Source: Escherichia phage A5-4. Taken from it: a DNA stretch of 64,000 nucleotides. Numbering within the stretch: the first letter of the stretch is position 1; every line of letters starts with the position of its first letter. The translations under genes were made by a program, and so were the position numbers. Under the pieces are notes generated by a model that had not been told where the DNA came from, did no database searches, and saw only the letters and a list, made by a program, of their open reading frames with translations. The stretch is from sequence record OP744025; one strand, given 5' to 3'. Positions 922 to 23,670 of the stretch are shown piece after piece.

Positions 922-2157
922 ATGATCCCTTTTCCAATTATTAATTTCGGTGGCGGTGTTCCACTACCTATAGGCGTTACAATCAAGTATGCAGTAAGTA
1001 CCAGCACCGGAAATATTTTTATTCTGCTTACCAATGGGCATCTATATGTAACCGGATCTAATTATCTAAACGGGCTTGGTAAAACAGGGACCACAAATAA
1101 TGCAACTTCGGGATGGTCACTTACTAACACAGGTGTTGAAGAAGTTTATGAGGTAGGAACAGAAAGTACACTGTACGGCGGTGTGTGGGTTAAGAAAAAT
1201 AATAACCACTATGAATATATCTCTGCTGTGGTCTTTCCCACTGTTGACACAACTCTCCAAAACAGTTGGAACGTCTTGCCTGAATCCGCATACATCGTTG
1301 ATGGTGTAAATATTTTATCTTCAGCAATACAAATAGCCAGATCATACGCGATCCAACCCGACGGCACTGTTTACAGACTGCTTCCCGAGGGGCCGCAAGT
1401 AGCTTGGCCTGAAAAAACAAAATACCTGTATTTTGCAAACTATAATGCTATTCGTGTCGAGGTGGATGGGACTTTAAAATACCGAGGCGACAATGGTGTA
1501 GATCAAGTGGCAGGCACTTCTGCCGGAACAACATTATCAACTTGGACAACCATCGGGGATTCTTCTGTAAGGTATATTAGGGCAAAATGTGCTCGTGGTC
1601 AAGTGGCTAACACGAGTGGCGGTTCAGGTGCTCAATCTATTGTACTTGTTGTTGCACAGAGGGAAGATGGGTCATGGGATGCAGTTGGATCGACAGCAAG
1701 AGCAGGGATAAACTCAACCAACGTCCTCGGTCCTAATTTAGCACCTATGACAAGCATACCTGCGGGGGTTGAAGTTTATGTCACTAACCAGGTCAGTTAT
1801 ACAAACGCAAGTGTGGGAACAAGGGGAGCATTGCAAGTGTTCATCTCCGATAGGGTTAATGGCATCTATCAATCAACGGGTGGACAAGGTGGATACACCT
1901 ATTCTTTATTTAGGAATCTTTCTATAACCACTAATGCAACATCTTTCGATAATATATCTGAAGATATTATAAACGATGGTGGTATCCTTCACATGACGGG
2001 TTCATTATCCGATACTTTCAAAGTGATTGTTAGTGGTAATGGTAATCTTTACTGGACAGGGAGAGGATATTCAGGGGCTATGTACCCTGCTGACTTTACG
2101 GCCTCTAATACGATAGCTCAGAAGTTTAACTTGGAAGGTATAGTTATTCCAGCATAA
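922..2157 (+). CDS. tail fibre / receptor-binding-like protein with Gly-rich RCC1-like repeats
   Basis: 411 aa ORF with AGGAGG RBS at 911-916. Repeats of the aromatic-x-x-G-x-x-x-x-G kind (LYVTGSNYLNGLGKTG, LYWTGRGYSGAMYP), same style as ORFs at 62211-64000. Confidence 0.5.
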   Translation: MIPFPIINFGGGVPLPIGVTIKYAVSTSTGNIFILLTNGHLYVTGSNYLNGLGKTGTTNNATSGWSLTNTGVEEVYEVGTESTLYGGVWVKKNNNHYEYISAVVFPTVDTTLQNSWNVLPESAYIVDGVNILSSAIQIARSYAIQPDGTVYRLLPEGPQVAWPEKTKYLYFANYNAIRVEVDGTLKYRGDNGVDQVAGTSAGTTLSTWTTIGDSSVRYIRAKCARGQVANTSGGSGAQSIVLVVAQREDGSWDAVGSTARAGINSTNVLGPNLAPMTSIPAGVEVYVTNQVSYTNASVGTRGALQVFISDRVNGIYQSTGGQGGYTYSLFRNLSITTNATSFDNISEDIINDGGILHMTGSLSDTFKVIVSGNGNLYWTGRGYSGAMYPADFTASNTIAQKFNLEGIVIPA

Positions 2158-2163
2158 AGAAAA

Positions 2164-2205: not shown

Positions 2206-3381
2206 TCAAAACGGAATATCGTCGTCAAAATCCATATCATCTACAGACATATTCACATGGCCTTCGATATCAGGTGTAGGTGAATCTTCTGCTGACGGAG
2301 TTAACTGCGGTTCCGGCTCAGGTTTCTTTTCTTCTTTCTTAGGAGTTGAAGCACCGTTACGGATCTTATCTTCCAGTTGACAGATGAATCGGAAATTCTC
2401 TTCAGTCTTAGCAATAAACGTTTCAATGTTATTACTTCCCCAACGGGCAGAAAGAATACCACACTGGCCTAAACGAGCACCAAAAGAATAATCATCCATA
2501 GATTTAAACTCTTCGCGAAGTTTTGCTTTAATGGAGTCCATCGCTGCAAGAACTTGCTCTACAACAATACCCTGATTTGCGATCGTTTCATTCGGGAACA
2601 TTGCATCTGTGATAGACAGTGCATTACCTAAACGAATGGGGAGATCATCCTTACCTTTACCTGAACGAGAACCTGTTCCGGTGTTTGCACCTTTTGGACC
2701 ATATGCTTTAAAGCCAGTTACAGTACCATCTTCTGCACGAACACCTGCAATACGACCACCTTCTGAAATCTGACCTGCTTGTTCATCAGTAAGATTTACA
2801 GTAACTTCTGTGCCATCTTCCAGCTTAACAACTACCTTATTGCCTTCGATAGATGTGATATCACCATAAATCTTCTTAGCTGCACCACCAGACGGCTTTT
2901 GCTGCTGTTGGGAACCACTTGATTGCTGCTGTTGCTGACGAGGCTCACGAGCACCGGATGCGTCAGTAATTTTGATACGTGCTTTCTTACCTTCTGTAGA
3001 AGAACCTTGACTACCATCTTCTTTGGTATAGGTCTTGATAACAACAGGTAAACGAATTTTCATACCCTCTTTAAGATCAGTGTAACCACCTTCAGGATTT
3101 TTAATCTGGAACTGATTCTCATACTTCAGGTTTTTAACTTCACCCTCACCAAAAGAAATCCATGCTTGATCTTCACCTTCTTTAAGAAGAACCGCATAGC
3201 GGTGGGTATTGTTAATGCTTTTCTGCTGACCAGTATTCTTGTCTTTGAAGGTAGTCACTCGTGGGCTACCATCTCCATTAATACGTTTGATCATGATACG
3301 TTCAATCGTACCTGCTGCGATGTTTACTGTGGTATCGGAAACAGCATCGTATACAGCATTGATAACTTTAACTTCAGACAT
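2206..3381 (-). CDS. putative single-stranded DNA-binding protein
   Basis: 391 aa. C-terminus DDMDFDDDIPF is an SSB-type acidic tail; Gln/Ser-rich flexible linker (EPRQQQQQSSGSQQQQ); lies in the replication gene block. Confidence 0.5.
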   Translation of the reverse strand: MSEVKVINAVYDAVSDTTVNIAAGTIERIMIKRINGDGSPRVTTFKDKNTGQQKSINNTHRYAVLLKEGEDQAWISFGEGEVKNLKYENQFQIKNPEGGYTDLKEGMKIRLPVVIKTYTKEDGSQGSSTEGKKARIKITDASGAREPRQQQQQSSGSQQQQKPSGGAAKKIYGDITSIEGNKVVVKLEDGTEVTVNLTDEQAGQISEGGRIAGVRAEDGTVTGFKAYGPKGANTGTGSRSGKGKDDLPIRLGNALSITDAMFPNETIANQGIVVEQVLAAMDSIKAKLREEFKSMDDYSFGARLGQCGILSARWGSNNIETFIAKTEENFRFICQLEDKIRNGASTPKKEEKKPEPEPQLTPSAEDSPTPDIEGHVNMSVDDMDFDDDIPF

Positions 3382-3464
3382 TTAAATCTCCTTTAACTAT
3401 TGAACACACCATTTAAGGCCGAGAAACTATATTACAACTAACTTATTTGAATTGCAAACAACTT

Positions 3465-3845
3465 TTAGAGATAAACTCGCTTAACTTTTTCATGAACATT
3501 ATCAAACAAAGTGTTGATCATCTGCAAGTCTTTAATAAGTTCTTCCGTAAATTGTTCTTCTTTGTGAGCAAACACACGAGAACGGTCAATGTTTACGGGA
3601 TCTGCACTTTGGTCACCAGACAGGTCGAAAATGTCGATACCAATACGAGCACGACCTTTTTCAATCTTATTCTCATCATCAATACCATAAACACTCATGA
3701 TTTGCATTTCACGATCTTCTTCACTGTTTGTATAGATGATCGTGGTATTCAGATTCTTAATGCCATCATAAATGTGGATATTACGTGTAGCTGAGATAGG
3801 AATCCAATCACCAACCAAATAATCTTTACCGTCGAAAATACTCAT
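3465..3845 (-). CDS. hypothetical protein
   Basis: 126 aa ORF in the minus-strand block; no recognisable motif. Confidence 0.5.
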   Translation of the reverse strand: MSIFDGKDYLVGDWIPISATRNIHIYDGIKNLNTTIIYTNSEEDREMQIMSVYGIDDENKIEKGRARIGIDIFDLSGDQSADPVNIDRSRVFAHKEEQFTEELIKDLQMINTLFDNVHEKVKRVYL

Positions 3846-3899
3846 CTTCTTTCCTCTTTTGTTTAAGTGGGGCCATTATGCCCCACACTTAACTTTCTG

Positions 3900-4472
3900 T
3901 CAAGGACGTTTCGGTGGACTAACGACACCTTTTTTAGATAAAGGTAATTCGTCTGCATCTTTTCCACGGAGAGATTCTAACCACTCATCTAAAGATAGAG
4001 GTACTTTGCCAACACCCTTGGACCATACAGATAAGCAATACAGGTCGTATGCAGATGGGCCAGCATCACCCTTGTCACCATACGGCCCTTTTAAACTCGC
4101 CAACCAATCCTTTTCATTCAGTGGGATAGTGCCTGGATCTTCTTGTCGAAGAACTCTTAGGTATGTTTCATAAGCAGACTCTCCACGGGGACCCATTGGA
4201 CCAGGTAAACCTTGCGGTCCCTTTGCATACTCTAAATATGCAGACTTTGAACCATCATTGACCACTGAAACTTTATACAATGACCAAGCCAACAGAACTA
4301 TCCAACAAGCAAACAATGCAAGCGGGTAAGGGATCATTGAAGTAAAGAATGACAGGGCTAAAATTACAACCTTGTTCTTGTGATCACGACGGAAAGCGAT
4401 GATCACAGGGGCTAACCAGATAGCAAAGATAACCCACGCAGATAAGATAAACAACCAACTAATGTATTCCAT
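3900..4472 (-). CDS. membrane protein with superinfection-immunity-like N-terminus and collagen-like G-x-Y repeats
   Basis: N-terminal TM region WLAPVIIAFRRDHKNKVVILALSFF resembles the Imm-type motif; C-terminal GPQGLPGPMGPRGESAY and GPYGDKGDAGPSAY triplet repeats. Confidence 0.5.
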   Translation of the reverse strand: MEYISWLFILSAWVIFAIWLAPVIIAFRRDHKNKVVILALSFFTSMIPYPLALFACWIVLLAWSLYKVSVVNDGSKSAYLEYAKGPQGLPGPMGPRGESAYETYLRVLRQEDPGTIPLNEKDWLASLKGPYGDKGDAGPSAYDLYCLSVWSKGVGKVPLSLDEWLESLRGKDADELPLSKKGVVSPPKRP

Positions 4473-11129: not shown

Positions 11130-11429
11130 TTAGTGACAATCTCCCCAGCTGTATCCACAAAGGTATTCTCCAGTTATCATCACTGGTGATTTCATCATCT
11201 TAGCTGCTTGTTCGACACAACGAACAACCATCTCTCCTACAGGGCAGTATGTAATAGTGAAGATACCATTTTCATCTGGATCACACTTAAACTTCCCTTC
11301 CTTCACGCAATGACCATCCAAGATCATTTTCTTAGCCAAGCAAGCTTCTACAAATTTCTTCGCGTCAGCTTCATTGTCAAAGGTCCAAGTCTTCTTAAAC
11401 TTGTGTGGCACTTCAAGCTGGTATTCATC
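11130..11429 (-). CDS. DNA polymerase (family A, T7 gp5-like), exon 2
   Basis: Frame of ORF 11130..11480 from GAT at 11429: DEYQLEVPHKF... ending ...GYSWGDCH, matching the family A C-terminus (T7 ...NWAICH); completes motif C when joined to exon 1. Confidence 0.7.
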   Translation of the reverse strand, partial: DEYQLEVPHKFKKTWTFDNEADAKKFVEACLAKKMILDGHCVKEGKFKCDPDENGIFTITYCPVGEMVVRCVEQAAKMMKSPVMITGEYLCGYSWGDCH

Positions 11430-12201
11430 CAAAAGTTTAACGAGGTCGTTACTCTCGCCCACATCATTACATGTTGCCATACGTTTTCACGTATGGATCG
11501 GACTATATCACCATCCTTTTCAGGATGCTCCCCATTTCGACGGCACTTGCTCGCCTACGCCTCTCGGCTAGTCTCTGAACGTTAGGACCATGTGTAGTCA
11601 CAAGAGATGTGTGTCCAGTTTTTACGGATTTTTATGGACCTTACCACGTTGTAAGGATAACCCATATCCCGAATCTGTGCACTTCCATAACCTTGCCCCA
11701 GGAAGTTGCAAATCTCTCTAACCTCTTCTTCGGTAACTATACTTCTGGCGTTATCAACCCCTGTTGCTGAACGACATTTATCAGCAAAGGTTTTCTTGAT
11801 ATTTCCACCACGAGTTGTCCATTGGAGGTTTGAATAGTGGTTATTCCTTTTGTCAGGCCACTTATGATCAACCTCCGGCAAACCTTCAGGGTTTGGTACA
11901 AAACACTCTGCCACCAAAACGTGAACAGCCTTTGTAGTCGTCCTTTTGTTGAGATACAGACTTACAATAAGATACCCACGTCCATTATCAACTGCCGCCA
12001 TTGGTTTCCCTCGACGACCTATAATGGTCCCGTCTTCATAAACCTTGTAACCGAAATAATCTTTATATTCCACATGATCCTCTTCGCTGCTGATTAACAT
12101 AGTCTCATACTAACTCACACTTGAATTAATATCAACCTTAGTCTTCCAGCAATTAAAGGAGTTTTCGATGTGAGTTACCTCACAAAGCCACAATGTTACT
12201 T
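11430..12201 (-). mobile_element. group I intron carrying an HNH homing endonuclease gene, inserted in polymerase motif C
   Basis: 772 nt between codons H and D of HDE. 5-prime exon ends in U, intron ends in G. Contains P-like AAUUGCUGGAAGACU (12139-12153), Q-like AAUCAGCAGC (12086-12095), R-like GUUCAGAGACUA (11566-11581) and S-like GAUAUAGUCC (11500-11511). Confidence 0.7.
11582..12100 (-). CDS. HNH homing endonuclease (intron-encoded)
   Basis: 172 aa; GYLIVSL...AVHVLVAECF...VDHKWPDKRNNHYSNLQWTTRGGN is an HNH-3 type signature; lies between the two polymerase exons. Confidence 0.75.
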   Translation of the reverse strand: MLISSEEDHVEYKDYFGYKVYEDGTIIGRRGKPMAAVDNGRGYLIVSLYLNKRTTTKAVHVLVAECFVPNPEGLPEVDHKWPDKRNNHYSNLQWTTRGGNIKKTFADKCRSATGVDNARSIVTEEEVREICNFLGQGYGSAQIRDMGYPYNVVRSIKIRKNWTHISCDYTWS

Positions 12202-14085
12202 ATGGTAATAGATAATACGTCTAACGCCTTCATCATACCAACCTTTCTTGACCAACTGCCAGTGCAGGAGGATACCCACCAAGTCAAACAGTGCAGCACC
12301 ACCATTCTGCTGATAAGCATTAAGCAATGAGTGTTTGGAACGAGTGTAGATCTTACGCCCATCCAGACCATAGATGAATCGCTTACCGTTAGCTTCCCAA
12401 AACTTCTCTAATGCTTCTTTACGACCTTTCAAGCCGATGTTGCTATCCCAGAATGCGTCGATTACTGCTTGGGCTTTCTCAAGACTGATACCAAGCATTG
12501 ATGCAATCTTCGCTGCCTGTGCCCCGTACATGATTCCGTATGTCACCCCTTTACCTTCGCCACGAGAAACCTTCTTCCCTGCTGCTTTGGTATATGCTTC
12601 TGCGTTTCGGGAGTGAGCATCTCCAGATTCCATGATACGAAGATAAGCACCGCCATCGAAATCATAAGCGCCCCATGCTGCGATCATGCCTTCCAAGTTT
12701 GAACCGTCGATACCTACCTGATATTTACCCTCAGAGGCTCTGAATAGTTCACGCATCTCTTTACCGAGAAGAACTTTCTCATCCGGCTTAGGTACGTTTG
12801 CTACGATCGTATGCTTACGACGACCTGTGTTAGTTATTCCACTATAACGGGCCGGAAGTTTACCGTCAACTCGTAGACGTGGATGGTTAAGCCATCCGGT
12901 ATCAACCTTCTCTTCTTTCAGCGGGTCAAGAACAGATCGTCGGTTACGTAAAGACAGCCATTTAACAATCTGTTTAGCCATTTCACCATCTACTCGCTCA
13001 AGGTTAGGGCAAAGACCTTGCTGATCCTTAAGTTGCGGGGATGTTGGCAATGCACGAGCTTTCTTACGGAAAAACTTGAACATCTTTTCTTTATCTGACC
13101 ACTGCTTAGGTGTGATCGCCAAGCTTTTCAGAATCAGATCACGATACTCCGTCTGATCCAAATCTTCAATGTATTGACGAACAATCAGATCAACCTCACT
13201 ATCAGGACGCTGTTTCTTGAACTGATCTTTAGTTGCATCCTTTGTACGCCAAATTGTTGGGACCCACCCTGCATCACGGATCAGGAACTTCTTAACGTCG
13301 TCCTGGTTACCAATACGCATCGGAATCATAATGTCCGGCATCTTTTGTTCTTTGATATCCATCAAAGCACGAGCCATATCTTCCGGCGGCAAAGGAACAA
13401 GTCCTTGCTGCTTAACGTTTTGTGCACGGATAAAATCACCCATTTTGGATTCATCCTCTACACCGTGCTCAACACAATACTTGATCGCGGCGGCAGTAAG
13501 AGATCCGTCAGCCTTAAACGGCTTACTTGGTGCACCTTTAAACTCCAAGGCTTCCCAATTGATATTATAACCTAACTTCTCTAACCATTTCCAACCTGTA
13601 CCGGAAAGAGATCCATCACCCTTGAAAGGTTTAGATGGGAATGTCGGTTGTGCTGATTTCGACATCTCTTTCTTCGGCAACTTAGGTTCAACCTCTAACT
13701 CAATGTCTGTCATCATCTTATCGATACGATCACGAAGCTTGAGTGCTTTTTCTTCATCAAATGAAACACCCTGAATTTCTTGCTCAATCATCAGGTAGTC
13801 AGTCAACATACCTCGACGCAGGGCATTCTTCCAGTTGATCATTTTATACTTCTTCTGATCTTTGTCTGTTTCATCCTTATACATGAAGCGTTTATCATCC
13901 GGCATAGATTCACAAGAGATCTCTTTCATCAGAGCATCCCATACCATTTCGTTGATAATTACGTCTTCAATAATACGATCGCAATACTTCCAAAGTGGAA
14001 GGCCACGCCAATCTTCGATCGCCACTTTCTGGTTAGCTACTCGCATACCCCAAGCTTCAAGCCCGTGTGGCCCTACAGGCTTCAT
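12202..14085 (-). CDS. DNA polymerase (family A, T7 gp5-like), polymerase part, exon 1
   Basis: HGLEAWGMRV matches T7 HALEAWGYRLG; Exo III-like YCDRIIEDV; motif B region SRGEGKGVTYGIMYGAQAAKI; reading frame ends ...RRIIYYH at the intron junction (track ORF 12196..14085). Confidence 0.8.
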
Positions 14086-20049: not shown

Positions 20050-20373
20050 TTATTCTCCTTTGTTCAGTGTGGATACGAATTCGATATAAGATTCTGCATT
20101 TCGTTTATGATAAATCTTAGGGTAACTTTCGGTTACTTTGCTGTATTTGATGTATCGCTCAAACATACCGACGACACCACCAATGGAATGCACAACAACG
20201 CCCTCTTCACCAACAAAGGTAACAACCTCTACGAATGGAGTATTATCGTAAGAGCGATTTACAATCAGGTCGCCAACTTCAAATTCGATTTTATCATTTT
20301 GTGAGTAGTACATTTGTTTTCTCCTTTCTGTTTGGTATGGGAGAAGTATAGGGAAGTTTGATGAGGGTGTCAA
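20050..20373 (-). CDS. hypothetical protein
   Basis: 107 aa ORF in block. Confidence 0.45.
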   Translation of the reverse strand: MTPSSNFPILLPYQTERRKQMYYSQNDKIEFEVGDLIVNRSYDNTPFVEVVTFVGEEGVVVHSIGGVVGMFERYIKYSKVTESYPKIYHKRNAESYIEFVSTLNKGE

Positions 20374-20405
20374 TAGAAAAAACCGCCCGAAGGCGGTTTA
20401 TTTTT
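20371..20405. terminator. bidirectional rho-independent terminator
   Basis: Hairpin ccgccc-gaag-gcgg flanked by A-run and T-run, immediately downstream of the helicase gene; same hairpin recurs at 62178-62193. Confidence 0.6.
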
Positions 20406-20409
20406 AGGA

Positions 20410-21516
20410 TCAGAAAGGTGCGTCGTCGTCCCAATCATCCGGCTCTGTGTCCGGCACATCAGGAATATCACCTGTGGATTCAACGATACTTTGTTGTTCC
20501 CACGTAGGTTCTTCTGAAGGTTGTTCCATTTCTTCCATAACCTTCTTGATCTCTTCCTCTTGCTCACGCAGGAAGTTATCATCCGGCTCAGGAATATCTT
20601 CCTCTTTAATATCTGAACGAGTGAGATCACTGTTTTGTTCAGACAGAGGTTGAATCTCTGCTGCTTTAGGCTTAAAGTCTGGAGAACGATGATCATCTTC
20701 TGGATGAGCGGCATACCACTCACGAAGAGTTTCATAAGGACTCTCTAAGAAGCCCTCTGGCGGTTCCAGATAATCACCCGTGTCAATGTCATAGAACACA
20801 GGGAATTTACCAGCACGACCGTGTTTACGGTCATCCAGAATAACAAAGTAAGAAGTGTTACGTTGTTTCATCGGGAGTTCTGGATCTTTGTTACGTTCAA
20901 TACCCCACATGTAATAAGTGTTACGCATCATTGCACGGCTACCAGCAAACTGCGCTGACTGGACTTGACCACCAAATTCATGAGGCTTACCAGATTCAGG
21001 CTTGTTAAGGTGACAGAAGCAATAATAGGTAAAGCCAAGCTCTTTTGCCAGTTTGGAGATCTCATCAGAGAATCGTTCCAGTTCCTGGTTAGCTTCGGAA
21101 GCACTCATACCTTGCACAAGACGAGTGATTGGGTCAATAAAGATATCTTCACAACCTTCTACGATCACTGCGTGACGGATAGCACCTTTCAGTTCATCCC
21201 ATACTGCACGACCATAGTTGTTATAATAGATAACACTATCACCAACTTCATCAGTAGCCTTGATCAGTTCTTCTTGCTTAAAGTAGCCACGTTGACCTTC
21301 AAATACTTCATTACCCCAAATGTCACGGAAAGTTCCATCTTCTTGAGGAATCATTACCTTTTCTGCGTTAACAAAGTCTTTATGATAACGCTTACCTGCG
21401 ATCTTTTTACAGGTAATTTCGTTCTCTTCTTCAAACTTAAACACCGCAGCCTTTGACTTCTCAATACCTGTAATGTGTTCTACCATCTGGTTAAGAAGTT
21501 CAGACTTACCCATTTT
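20410..21516 (-). CDS. primase-helicase (T7 gp4-like), helicase domain, exon 2
   Basis: Begins within Walker A (..KMGKSELL); CFCHLNKPESGKPHEFGGQVQSAQFAGSRAMMRNTYYMWGIERN aligns with T7 gp4 [32 protein letters not shown]...IALERN; acidic C-terminus ...DDWDDDAPF. Exon start uncertain by a few nt. Confidence 0.75.
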   Translation of the reverse strand, partial: KMGKSELLNQMVEHITGIEKSKAAVFKFEEENEITCKKIAGKRYHKDFVNAEKVMIPQEDGTFRDIWGNEVFEGQRGYFKQEELIKATDEVGDSVIYYNNYGRAVWDELKGAIRHAVIVEGCEDIFIDPITRLVQGMSASEANQELERFSDEISKLAKELGFTYYCFCHLNKPESGKPHEFGGQVQSAQFAGSRAMMRNTYYMWGIERNKDPELPMKQRNTSYFVILDDRKHGRAGKFPVFYDIDTGDYLEPPEGFLESPYETLREWYAAHPEDDHRSPDFKPKAAEIQPLSEQNSDLTRSDIKEEDIPEPDDNFLREQEEEIKKVMEEMEQPSEEPTWEQQSIVESTGDIPDVPDTEPDDWDDDAPF

Positions 21517-22268
21517 CACCGTTATGTTCGACAGGGTTCGCTACTCCCTGCCCGTTCTCTTACGAACTGCTACATGTCCCCATGCAGACCAGACTATATC
21601 TTCAACCTGTTTCCAGGTGCTATGCACTTCGGACCGCTTGGCCCTACTCTACTCGATTCAAGAGTCTAGCTCTTGTCTTTCGATAGTCGTTGCTCCTTCC
21701 TCTCAACCGCTTTGTAATTTGTCTTACGGTATCTCTGTGTATCCCAAAATGCTCTGCAATTTCTTTTTGTTGAAGCGTGGTATTAATAACCATTTCGTAA
21801 ACCTGCTTCTCAAAATCATCAGCATATCTATTTGGATTTCTTCTACCGTTGGCCCAACCATGATCGACATTTTCTTTCGTGGTTGTCCATTCCAAATTAA
21901 CATCGTTGTTGTTTTGCCTGTCGCTATCTTTATGATTAACAACAGGAAGGTTATGAGGGTTATCAACGTAGTGTTCAGCCACCAATTGGTGAATAAATCT
22001 ACGTGTAACCTTACCATCTTTACTTAACGAAACTCTAAGATACCCTGAACTATTGGTATCCGGTTTGAGTTTTTTAAGCTTCCGGTAAACATCTCCCCTT
22101 CGGGTAATGATGTAATTTTCAAAACCTTTTATTCTTTTCATTTCCCCCCCTTGCAATAAACAAAGAGGTTGAGAGGCTTGGATCAGGATTACGTGTTCTA
22201 CGCTTCCCCTGAGTTCACATAGTATTTAGTCGAGGCATCTCTGCCAAGGCTGGCTAGACTTAATGTTT
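21517..22268 (-). mobile_element. group I intron carrying an HNH homing endonuclease gene, inserted in helicase Walker A codons
   Basis: About 750 nt between ...FIGAG and (K)MGKS...; S-like AAGAUAUAGUCU (21591-21606); R-like CAACGACUAUCG (21681-21695); candidate P/Q in the 5-prime part (CUCAGGGGAAGCG, AAUCCUGAUCC). Boundaries approximate. Confidence 0.6.
21644..22156 (-). CDS. HNH homing endonuclease (intron-encoded)
   Basis: 170 aa; GYLRVSL...FIHQLVAEHYVDNPHNLPVVNHKDSDRQNNNDVNLEWTTTKEN is an HNH signature; probable true start at the internal ATG (MKRIKGF). Confidence 0.75.
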   Translation of the reverse strand: MQGGEMKRIKGFENYIITRRGDVYRKLKKLKPDTNSSGYLRVSLSKDGKVTRRFIHQLVAEHYVDNPHNLPVVNHKDSDRQNNNDVNLEWTTTKENVDHGWANGRRNPNRYADDFEKQVYEMVINTTLQQKEIAEHFGIHRDTVRQITKRLRGRSNDYRKTRARLLNRVE

Positions 22269-23204
22269 ACCAGCACCGATGAAGTAACCTTCACCTGGAC
22301 GACGACCCAAGGTAAGCTTGGTCATGGTGGGCCAAGGGAACTTCTTGCCGAGTTTAGGGATCTCATGTGCCTTTTCGCGGAACTGTGAATAAGTCGAGAA
22401 ACCATCCGGCACATATTCCTTTGGCTTCATTGCAGCCCAAAACAACTGATCAGAAAGTCCTTTGTTATACATGTCGCAAGGGTCCATATCTTCTGGAATG
22501 TCCACGACCTTCATTTGTGGAATTACAGAGTATACCGCTGCAACTGCATCTTTACCTTTCATGATCCCTTTGGCCTTCTCTGCTTCTGTCGCACGGTCAG
22601 CATCGAAAGCTACGATAATCTCTTCAAACTTACTCAGAAGCTTATAGTTATTCTTCTGTGATAAGTTTTGCACGGCATTGGATGTACCGTTAGAGATAGA
22701 TACAACTGTGAAGTTTGGTTTACGAGTGGAACCATCCTTCGGTTTGTACTTCTCTGTCAATACCTGCCACAAGATTGCAGCATCATATTCACCTTCAGTG
22801 ATAAAGATCATACGTTTGGAAGACTTATTTGCACCTTCCAGCCCAAACATATCACAAGCCACAGATTGGAAACCAATAGTTGTAAAGTGACCTTTCTGTT
22901 GCTTAGGGATCGTAAGATCACGCTTCTTAAAACCTACAACCTTACCTTCTAATGTATACGGGAAATAATGTGCTTCTGGTGTCATACCGTCTTTAGCTGA
23001 CAGTTTGGTACGAATACCAAATCGTTTAGCTGTCTTTTCGTCGATACCGCGCTCAGGGATACTTTTGCACGGGTAAGTCAATACGTCTTCAACTGTTTCT
23101 TCTACACGAGACACACCACCACCATAATTACGTGCTACTGAAGCTTTAGGATTTTTATGTCCAAACTTATAACCGCCAAACAAACTTTCGCCAATAGTGC
23201 TCAT
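22269..23204 (-). CDS. primase-helicase (T7 gp4-like), primase (TOPRIM) domain, exon 1
   Basis: KRMIFITEGEYDAAIL, VVSISNGTSNA, IIVAFDADRATEAE, EYVPDGFSTY and TLGRRPGE align with T7 gp4 TEGEIDMLTV, VVSLGHGASAA, ILMFDMDEAGRKA, PWIPDGVVS, TLGARGGE. No N-terminal Cys4 zinc-binding domain. Frame stops 3 codons after the proposed splice site. Confidence 0.75.
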
Positions 23205-23361
23205 TACTGCTCCTTGATCATCGTCGCCAAATAAATAGTGTTACCGTTTGAATTAATACCTGCTGTTACAGGACCCATCAATTTATAACCATAATCGTAA
23301 TGCTTCAGTATATATTTCTGAAGAGACAATAGATTTGTATACGATAGGATCTTAATGTCCA

Positions 23362-23670
23362 TCAAAAACCTCCAGTTTCTTCATCAAATGCCTGACTTAC
23401 TTGTGCATCACGGATACGTTCTTCAATACAACGATACACTACTTCATACGGGATATCAAGAGCAATTTCTTCACCATCTTCATAAACAGTGATTGAAAAA
23501 ATATCTAAGTAATCTTCGGCATCCCAATCTGACTCTGCATCTGGAATACCTTTGTACATAACAACCTCTACTTCAACAACCACCTCTTTACCGATCGCCT
23601 TATGAAAATGTGTGAATTCGAAGTTTACTGTACGCATTTTATTTTCTCCTGATAATTTATATTTATTCAA
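23362..23670 (-). CDS. hypothetical protein
   Basis: 102 aa acidic ORF. Confidence 0.45.
   Translation of the reverse strand: MNKYKLSGENKMRTVNFEFTHFHKAIGKEVVVEVEVVMYKGIPDAESDWDAEDYLDIFSITVYEDGEEIALDIPYEVVYRCIEERIRDAQVSQAFDEETGGF

Follow-up and report, generated by a model that had tools for sequence, protein, structure and literature searches.

A predicted mobile group I intron with an HNH endonuclease gene within the Walker A codons of a gp4-like primase-helicase gene of Escherichia phage A5-4

The stretch of DNA considered here (the window) comprises 64,000 nucleotides (nt) of Escherichia phage A5-4 (sequence record OP744025), and all coordinates are positions within it. At the locus under study, whose features lie on the minus strand, the list of open reading frames (ORFs) contains three entries: 23204..22260 (314 amino acids, aa), 22141..21644 (165 aa) and 21519..20410. 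The first, a primase ORF, ends in GEGYFIGAGKH followed by a stop codon (LGRRPGEGYFIGAGKH), and the last, a helicase ORF, opens with a GTG codon and reads (GTG)MKMGKSELL. A preliminary description of this region had proposed that a group I intron with an HNH endonuclease gene splits a primase-helicase gene related to T7 gp4 inside its Walker A codons. The analyses reported here lead to the same reading, with the following arrangement:

22269..23204, minus strand: exon 1 (codons 1-312) of the primase-helicase gene related to gp4, encoding the primase/TOPRIM portion along with the initial two residues of Walker A
21520..22268, minus strand: predicted group I intron of 749 nt, IA2-like (td-like), with an ORF in the P6a loop; delimited by intron-less alleles and the U(-1)/omegaG rule
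21644..22141, minus strand: HNH homing endonuclease gene, 165 aa, with ATG at 22141 and the stop codon UAG at 21646..21644
20410..21519, minus strand: exon 2, codons 313-681 and stop codon, encoding VKMGKS of Walker A and the rest of the DnaB-family helicase domain

Both outer ORFs match PHROG 239 ("DNA primase/helicase") with E-values of ~1e-74 each, and their matches adjoin on the 801 positions of this profile (101-366 for the exon 1 ORF, 368-658 for the exon 2 ORF). In Pfam, Toprim was found weakly in the first ORF and DnaB_C in the third. Splicing in silico from 22269 to 21519 yields an ORF of 2046 nt whose 681-aa product is 100% identical to the uninterrupted primase/helicase gp82 of phage A73 (682/682, counting the stop column). 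Residues 51-528 of this product align in a single stretch, across the junction, with structures of T7 gp4 (5IKN, 6N7I, 1Q57), and the segment TLGRRPGEGYFIGAGVKMGKS is located opposite a 21-letter T7 gp4 stretch in that structure-sequence alignment. The spliced product thus fits a bifunctional enzyme of the T7 gp4 type, with a TOPRIM primase followed by a DnaB-family helicase with Walker A; exon 2 additionally encodes an acidic C-terminal tail. The junction is situated between G312 and V313, so that A311-G312/V313-K314-M315-G316-K317-S318 forms an AxxxxGKS P-loop, written here as GAG/VKMGKS. When exon 1 is left unspliced, its frame continues into the intron for K, H and a stop codon, down to 22260. 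On sequence grounds, the primase and helicase ORFs are the two exons of one gp4-like gene, and the earlier statements that the former aligns with T7 gp4 before ending in FIGAGKH and that the latter (20410..21519) starts at the second half of Walker A were both borne out.

Relatives of the phage provide the uninterrupted form of this gene. The window belongs to a clade of unclassified coliphages within the Vequintavirinae, and its best database match is A7_1 (~97%). The site is empty in A73 and LTH01, each of which carries one continuous "DNA primase/helicase" coding sequence (CDS) of 2046 nt, and the Certrevirus phages DU_PP_I, CR9 and F1M1E likewise have a continuous primase/helicase gene with GAGVKMGKS. 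The insertion proposed in the preliminary description is therefore clean in comparison with all five intron-less homologs. These alleles bear on the alternative that primase and helicase are naturally separate genes, as are T4 gp61 and gp41, flanking a free-standing HNH gene in an ordinary intergenic region from which nothing is spliced. In the GenBank records of A7_1, UPEC06 and W70, a "hypothetical protein" CDS is indeed separate from the "DNA primase/helicase" CDS, and exon 2 opens with an in-frame GTG as its very first codon. However, the break lies inside the P-loop and a downstream product would start with MKMGKS, without the A-G of AxxxxGKS; related phages carry one continuous gene, and the insert excises to the nucleotide; both ORFs map to adjoining positions of one PHROG profile; and the supposedly intergenic RNA corresponds to a group I core of 70 bits that shows covariation (see below). 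Consequently, separate genes are a very improbable explanation. An intein was rejected as well, since the reading frame of exon 1 meets a stop codon after only two codons of the insert (AAA CAU UAA) and the HNH ORF begins at a start codon of its own.

The boundaries of the predicted intron were placed by means of the intron-less alleles and the base-pairing of the 5' exon. In megablast comparisons with phage genomes, the match breaks at 22270/21520 against A73 and LTH01, which read ATCGGGGCTGGGGTCAAGATGGG at the site and have GGG at codon 312 where the window has GGT. The alignment alone permits either 22269/21519 or 22270/21520, both of which yield an identical protein. The pair 22269/21520 was chosen because it alone lets the 5' exon end in U and the intron end in G, the termini demanded by group I chemistry. 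The 5' splice site is thus predicted after U22269 and the 3' splice site after G21520, resulting in the mRNA junction GGU/GUG (in longer context, GGUGCUGGU joined to GUGAAAAUGGG). Unconstrained folding by minimum free energy (MFE) supports the pairing of the exon end with an internal guide sequence (IGS):

22269..22274, minus strand: 5' strand of P1, exon GCUGGU, complementary to the IGS
22249..22254, minus strand: IGS GCCAGC, 3' strand of P1, intron nt 15-20

The last exon base in this helix, U22269, is wobble-paired (U.G) to G15 of the intron, within the guide sequence. Exon 2, as delimited by the intron-less alleles, begins right after G21520, the terminal omega-G. Exon/IGS complementarity, the U.G pair at the splice site and the U...G rule are shared by each of 9 related intron groups located at other sites. 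P10 is dispensable in many group I introns. Here, a search for P10 by eye revealed no contiguous stretch in which intron nt 1-14 are complementary to the beginning of the 3' exon, GUGAAAAUGG; as no convincing P10 is available, the choice of the 3' splice site relies on omega-G and the intron-less alignment. A heptamer UAAGUCU is present both in the P1 loop (22255..22261) and in the GKS codons of exon 2 (21503..21509; GGUAAGUCU), on the minus strand in each case. It was rejected as a P10 since the two copies are identical rather than complementary, and it possibly is a coincidence.

A real intron whose boundaries are shifted by 1 nt, with the 5' site after G22270 and the 3' site after C21521, would agree with the BLAST break at 22270/21520, which results from GGG at codon 312 of the intron-less alleles, and would likewise restore Gly-Val. 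Yet it would place G instead of U at the 5' splice site and C instead of G at the 3' end of the intron, violating the two most conserved rules of group I introns, and would lose the U.G pair with guide G15, whereas 9/9 related intron groups obey the U...G rule. The chance that the shifted boundaries are the correct ones is therefore rated as almost negligible. Relative to the favored boundaries, the preliminary description was accurate on the 5' side, where U22269 falls within its candidate range of 22269-22275, and missed the 3' side, where G21520 lies outside its range of 21511-21517; the low end of its intron, 21517, was accordingly off by 3 nt from the interval 22268..21520 given here.

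The RNA between the two exons carries the signature of a group I ribozyme, which is most clearly recognized in a natural copy that lacks the ORF. The 283-nt intron of phage W70, which has no ORF, matches the entire RF00028 model (positions 1-253) with 70.4 bits and an E-value of 8e-17, the gathering score being 50. Outside the P6a loop, this copy and the window are 100% identical over 94 nt 5' and 182 nt 3' of the loop, and in W70 the loop itself is shrunk to CCUU-GAAA-AAGG. These comparisons identify the core as belonging to group I, RF00028, in line with the earlier proposal. Based on its modeled P1-P9.2 layout, the core is assigned by architecture to subgroup IA2, resembling the T4 td intron. 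An unconstrained MFE fold of the W70 sequence with short exon flanks recovered P1, P2, P4, P5, P6/P6a, P7.1, P7.2, P8, P9, P9.1 and P9.2 (z = -2.2). The elements following P1 are listed below in the coordinates of the window; all lie on the minus strand, and those from P3 to the 5' strand of P6 follow the Rfam alignment of the W70 copy.

22234..22245, minus strand: P2 hairpin GGCA-GAGA-UGCC with a GNRA loop (GUAA in UPEC06)
22222..22216, minus strand: P3, 5' strand
22212..22207 and 22188..22183, minus strand: P4, 5' and 3' strands
22203..22191, minus strand: P5 hairpin
22181..22180, minus strand: P6, 5' strand
22171..22176, minus strand: P6a, 5' strand CCUCUC, pairing with GAGAGG at 21704..21699; this stem closes the ORF loop
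21704..21683, minus strand: "R" element, consisting of the P6a 3' strand (21704..21699), the P6 3' strand (21696..21695), J6/7 AGCAAC and the P7 5' strand GACUAU (21688..21683)
21682..21654, minus strand: P7.1, peripheral hairpin
21644..21631, minus strand: P7.2, peripheral hairpin
21626..21592, minus strand: "S" element, consisting of the P3 3' strand UGCAUAG (21626..21620), the P8 hairpin (21618..21605), J8/7 UGAAGAU and the P7 3' strand AUAGUC (21597..21592)
21587..21570, 21567..21554 and 21550..21532, minus strand: P9, P9.1 and P9.2, followed by the 3' tail UCGAACAUAAC and omega-G at 21520

The S-like and R-like sequences noted earlier, AAGAUAUAGUCU and CAACGACUAUCG, were located at 21602..21591 and 21692..21681, respectively. 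Insertions of P7.1 and P7.2 between P7 and the 3' strand of P3 are a hallmark of subgroup IA. The loop of the P9 hairpin is of the GNRA type. Matches to gyrA and rpsL RNA families in the Rfam scan at the E-value threshold were dismissed as chance (E 0.44 and 7.8). A group II intron was rejected, as no Rfam group II match was obtained at E up to 10 in 21300..22500 and the ORF contains only HNH and helix-turn-helix (HTH) domains.

Further support for this structure is provided by covariation among 11 introns, namely the window core and those of A7_1, UPEC06, Roth32, Z1, ULINTec6, KZY1, JSF38, kvi, an Acinetobacter phage and a Pseudomonas phage. The sequences were aligned with MAFFT and pairs were counted, with P8 and P6a left partly misaligned. 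Standard pairs occupy 92.1% of pair cells, compared with 29.5-40.5% in controls that shift the 3' partners by 1-3 columns, and 33 of the 67 pairs are changed on both sides. None of 500 shuffles reached the observed value on any of five measures. Double changes affect six of the seven pairs of P3, two pairs of P5, four of five in P7.2 and all five in P9.2; P7 is invariant in 11/11 sequences. The UPEC06 core, which is 91% identical to that of the window, illustrates the pattern: double compensatory changes convert C-G to U-A and G-C to C-G in P5, a compensatory change converts G-C to A-U in P9.2, and wobble switches occur in P7.2 and P8. Taken across the aligned sequences, covariation supports the core helices P3-P8, including the P3/P7 pseudoknot. 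Because the W70 core reaches an E-value of 8e-17 and no shuffle attains the observed covariation, the intron is not regarded as a chance match.

Several observations weigh against an active group I intron, adding to the two permissible alignments of its boundaries and the lack of a P10 described above. The window gave no RF00028 match at the Rfam gathering threshold. At the E-value threshold, it scored only 24.6 bits on RF00028 in the 3' half of the core (21760..21570; gathering score 50), with a second fragment of 10.9 bits covering P4-P6. Membership of the window intron in RF00028 consequently relies on the natural ORF-less W70 copy; the window itself falls below the threshold because the ORF-bearing P6a loop of ~470 nt splits the model. 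P8 is paired in only 50.9% of cells in the automatic alignment, which is attributed to differences in loop length and a misaligned loop. In addition, the VVDHKD motif of I-HmuI reads VVNHKD in the intron ORF, a D to N replacement; N is common at this position in the family. Finally, splicing of the window intron is a prediction from its sequence.

This last point, the unclear P10 and the overlap of the ORF with the region from the P6 3' strand to P7.1, whose translation could disturb folding, speak for the alternative that the element is an intron by descent that is now splicing-dead or dependent on host or phage factors, the gene being a pseudogene or another helicase being used. The state of the core argues otherwise. 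It is identical to that of W70, a cultured isolate, and differs from that of the isolate A7_1 by a single change from G.U to A-U, located in P7.2; the diverged UPEC06 copy (91% identity) retains every helix through compensatory changes; and P7, J8/7 and omega-G are intact. By analogy with T7 gp4, an inactive intron would be lethal if the primase-helicase is essential. This alternative is considered highly unlikely.

The ORF in the P6a loop is the HNH gene reported earlier between the primase and helicase ORFs. Its start codon at 22141 is preceded by a G-rich sequence resembling a Shine-Dalgarno motif (AAGGGGGGG). I-HmuI, a nicking HNH endonuclease encoded by the DNA polymerase intron of Bacillus phage SPO1, shares its organization, with I-HmuI-like N-terminal and HNH domains followed by a C-terminal helix-turn-helix. 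The ORF matches I-HmuI (PDB 1U3E) over residues 2-106 (E 1.4e-14) and PHROG 59 ("HNH endonuclease"; E 4e-43), and its motif VVNHKD...NN..NLEW aligns with VVDHKD...NN..NLRW of I-HmuI. In Pfam, HNH_3 scores 21.4 bits, slightly below the cut-off of 24.8, and an HTH domain is also matched. The last ~19 codons are encoded by the 3' strands of P6a and P6, J6/7, P7 and P7.1, so that ~55 nt of the ribozyme core are overlapped, and the UAG stop codon overlaps the first base of P7.2.

Compared with its UPEC06 ortholog (1664..2158 of locus L012, against 21647..22141 of the window), the ORF is 85% identical in aa and 79% in nt, with a ratio of nonsynonymous to synonymous divergence (dN/dS) of 0.066. The dS between the two ORFs is saturated at ~2.3; by segment, it is saturated in the loop part and amounts to only 0.27 in the ribozyme overlap. 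The low dN/dS and the low dS of the overlap therefore indicate purifying selection on the protein, with an additional constraint on the RNA where the two overlap, and the intron endonuclease looks functional by these sequence measures. A scan of 20300..23500 for promoters and terminators revealed 7 promoter-like sites, with 6.7 expected, and no sign of a promoter of the HNH gene's own. Between UPEC06 and the window, DNA identity is 79% for the HNH ORF and 91% for the ribozyme core, and the exon flanks are nearly identical; the ORF and the ribozyme may have partly separate histories. An ORF of 184 aa runs antisense to the HNH gene (21473..22027, plus strand), and the GenBank record of A7_1 annotates this antisense ORF (2775..3278 of locus L004) as "hypothetical protein" in place of the HNH gene.

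Together, these findings make it highly probable that a mobile, self-splicing group I intron of subgroup IA2 separates codon 312 from codon 313 in one gp4-like gene, splitting the Walker A motif at A311-G312/V313..S318 as had been supposed. In this model, the minus-strand gene would be transcribed as a single pre-mRNA, in which the intron folds and the exon sequence GCUGGU forms P1 with the internal guide GCCAGC. An exogenous guanosine would then attack after U22269, held in the U.G wobble, and the freed 3'-OH would attack after the terminal G21520, leading to ligation of the exons and an mRNA for the full 681-aa enzyme. Failure to splice would leave only a primase fragment of 314 aa and a helicase with half of its P-loop gone. 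In mixed infections, the HNH enzyme would presumably cleave or nick alleles that lack the intron, close to the point of insertion, and recombinational repair would copy the intron along with ~20-110 bp of flanking exon into the recipient (co-conversion). For annotation, the predicted arrangement corresponds to a joined CDS of 681 aa, interrupted by an intron that is entered as a feature together with its HNH homing endonuclease gene. In the nearest genomes, A7_1, UPEC06 and W70, the intron is unannotated, and the records of UPEC06 and W70 label exon 1 as "hypothetical protein"; all three call for a joined CDS and an entry for the intron.

Mobility of the intron is suggested by its distribution and by the exon sequences surrounding it. 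An insert of ~750 nt with intron and HNH ORF is found in the window, A7_1 and UPEC06, the intron of 283 nt without ORF in W70, and the empty site in A73 and LTH01. Where the window and the intron-less A73 differ, the changes are synonymous throughout and concentrated at the insertion site: 14 fall in the region -108..0 and 5 in +1..+54, and the other 1056 nt of exon 2 contain none. A comparison of the exons of six phages revealed the following mosaic:

Flank -120..+60, among the four intron-containing phages: 0-6 differences
Flank -120..+60, intron-containing versus intron-less phages: 14-25 differences
Distal exon 2, window versus intron-less A73: 0/1050 differences
Distal exon 2, window versus intron-containing A7_1: 46 differences
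Distal exon 1, intron-containing UPEC06 versus intron-less LTH01: 0/816 differences
21466..22377, minus strand: approximate co-conversion tract, flanks -108 to +54 with the haplotype common to intron-containing phages

The exon flanks track the presence of the intron and the distal exons do not, and therefore the history of the intron appears to be uncoupled from that of the surrounding gene. This pattern, read from the aligned genomes, indicates that the intron moved recently and horizontally together with a short exon tract, and the mosaic is the footprint expected of endonuclease-driven homing with co-conversion. The three states within one clade fit the usual gain-and-decay cycle of homing endonucleases. 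Two of these states also occur in Klebsiella phages, the intron with ORF in Z1 and the ORF-less form in Roth32. A search of the viral contigs of IMG/VR for the exact junction pattern (GGTAAACATTAAGTCTAGCCAGC) returned no matches, and this combination of intron and site seems to be confined to few coliphage isolates. In this small clade, a single site is found empty, with the intron and its endonuclease gene, or with the intron alone, which covers the complete life cycle of a homing endonuclease; together with co-conversion tracts at the nucleotide level, this offers a tidy natural system for the study of intron homing and marker exclusion between co-infecting coliphages.

With regard to known systems, IA2 introns with HNH genes have long been known from the replication genes of phages. 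A BLASTN search with the 283-nt core retrieved similar sequences in 926 phage records, and the window intron is a new, previously unannotated member of this large and well-known family, which leaves the understanding of how such elements work unchanged. It shares with the T4 td intron, which harbors I-TevI, the P1-P9 core, P7.1/P7.2, P9.1/P9.2, an endonuclease ORF looped out of P6a and the insertion at a conserved site of a gene of nucleotide or DNA metabolism. In contrast to the window, the host gene of td is thymidylate synthase instead of a primase-helicase and its endonuclease is of the GIY-YIG instead of the I-HmuI-type HNH class; the 3' end of the window ORF, unlike that of td, extends ~55 nt into the ribozyme core. 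The DNA polymerase introns of SPO1 and SP82 (I-HmuI/I-HmuII) are likewise group I introns in an essential replication gene, encoding proteins with the same succession of N-terminal DNA-binding, HNH and C-terminal HTH parts, but they differ in host gene and host clade, and the D of DHKD in I-HmuI is N in the window. The closest literature concerns the Certrevirus phage CB7, which belongs to the same subfamily (Vequintavirinae) and also carries group I introns with HNH ORFs in genes of replication and nucleotide metabolism. Introns were described in its terL, DNA polymerase, nrdA, nrdB and phosphoribosyl transferase genes, with none reported in a primase/helicase, and splicing of HNH introns was shown by reverse transcription PCR for terL, DNA polymerase, nrdA and nrdB (PMC7344957). 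The nrdA region of CB7/phiTE is ~84% identical to the 3' core of the window intron over 93 nt, whereas the Certrevirus primase/helicase genes examined (DU_PP_I, CR9, F1M1E) are, unlike that of the window, free of introns. A search of open-access literature yielded no description of an intron in the Walker A codons of a primase-helicase, only general or unrelated cases of which the CB7 study is the closest (PMC7344957).

Introns within the Walker A codons of gp4-like genes were also detected in phages of other families (Autographiviridae, Zobellviridae): Escherichia phage ULINTec6 (Vectrevirus), vB_Kp_Z1/Roth32 (Gajwadongvirus), KZY1 and HP1. Their IA2 cores are 70-81% identical to that of the window, and their HNH ORFs show 31-52% aa identity, Roth32 being ORF-less; the GenBank record of ULINTec6 carries the note "Phage intron". 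The insertion sites are staggered as follows, with a slash or caret at the point of insertion:

Site 0, window and Vequintavirinae clade: GAG/VKMGKS
Site +2, Pseudoalteromonas phage HP1 (Melvirus): GSGV^KMGKS
Site +8, Z1 and Roth32 (Gajwadongvirus) and ULINTec6 (Vectrevirus): GxGV^GKT
Site +12, KZY1 (Zobellviridae): KMG/KS

In each of these introns, the guide sequence is complementary to the 5' exon at that intron's own site. One might tentatively view the dozen nt encoding Walker A in gp4-like genes as a landing strip, used across phage families by a single lineage of introns with IA2 cores and I-HmuI-type HNH genes, a proposal we consider possible but rather doubtful. If it is true, it would imply repeated retargeting over short range, in which the endonuclease recognizes the conserved P-loop DNA and the IGS of the ribozyme is reset. 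Short-range retargeting has already been proposed as a route to new mobile introns; to our knowledge, it has not been described for a primase-helicase gene. The staggered sites themselves are observed, and it is a matter of speculation that they arose by stepwise retargeting of one lineage rather than by independent captures. They represent the only mildly novel aspect of the system. With the window intron, the P-loop of the primase-helicase joins the conserved catalytic motifs already known as targets of self-splicing elements.

Other insertions were noticed in gp4-like genes. A second hotspot follows ...SRAMMR and is occupied in W70 and HP1 and empty in the window, A73 and A7_1. In W70, it contains an HNH-containing group I intron of 846 nt in the helicase domain (~3413..4258 of locus L003; RF00028, 24.7 bits), where the exon AUGCGU pairs with the IGS GCGCAUC; the corresponding empty site of the window is at ~20923/20922. 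In Vibrio phage JSF38 (1860..2585 of locus L007), an intron of the same family as that of the window, with the same 3' end (UCGAACAUAACG), is situated not in Walker A but in the primase part of the gp4-like gene (FVDA/WWQPSE). Its exon has an 18-aa stretch (HYAKRAKQAVEMGLSYFC) in common with a Klebsiella phage gene, though the host label is Vibrio.

Elsewhere in the window, a second group I intron was found by the local scan at 11478..12211 on the minus strand (RF00028, 42.9 bits, E 2.7e-09). It comes after a family A DNA polymerase ORF of 629 aa (14085..12196) and contains an HNH_3 ORF of 172 aa (12100..11582); the ORF 11480..11130 on its 3' side presumably is the next polymerase exon. Directly 3' of the helicase stop codon, a strong intrinsic terminator with an 8-bp stem (AAACCGCC/GGCGGTTT) and a T-run is located at 20399..20380 on the minus strand. 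It is followed by a near-consensus sigma-70 promoter (TTGACA-17-TATACT, 11/12 matches; 20373..20345, minus strand), which probably starts the next transcription unit.

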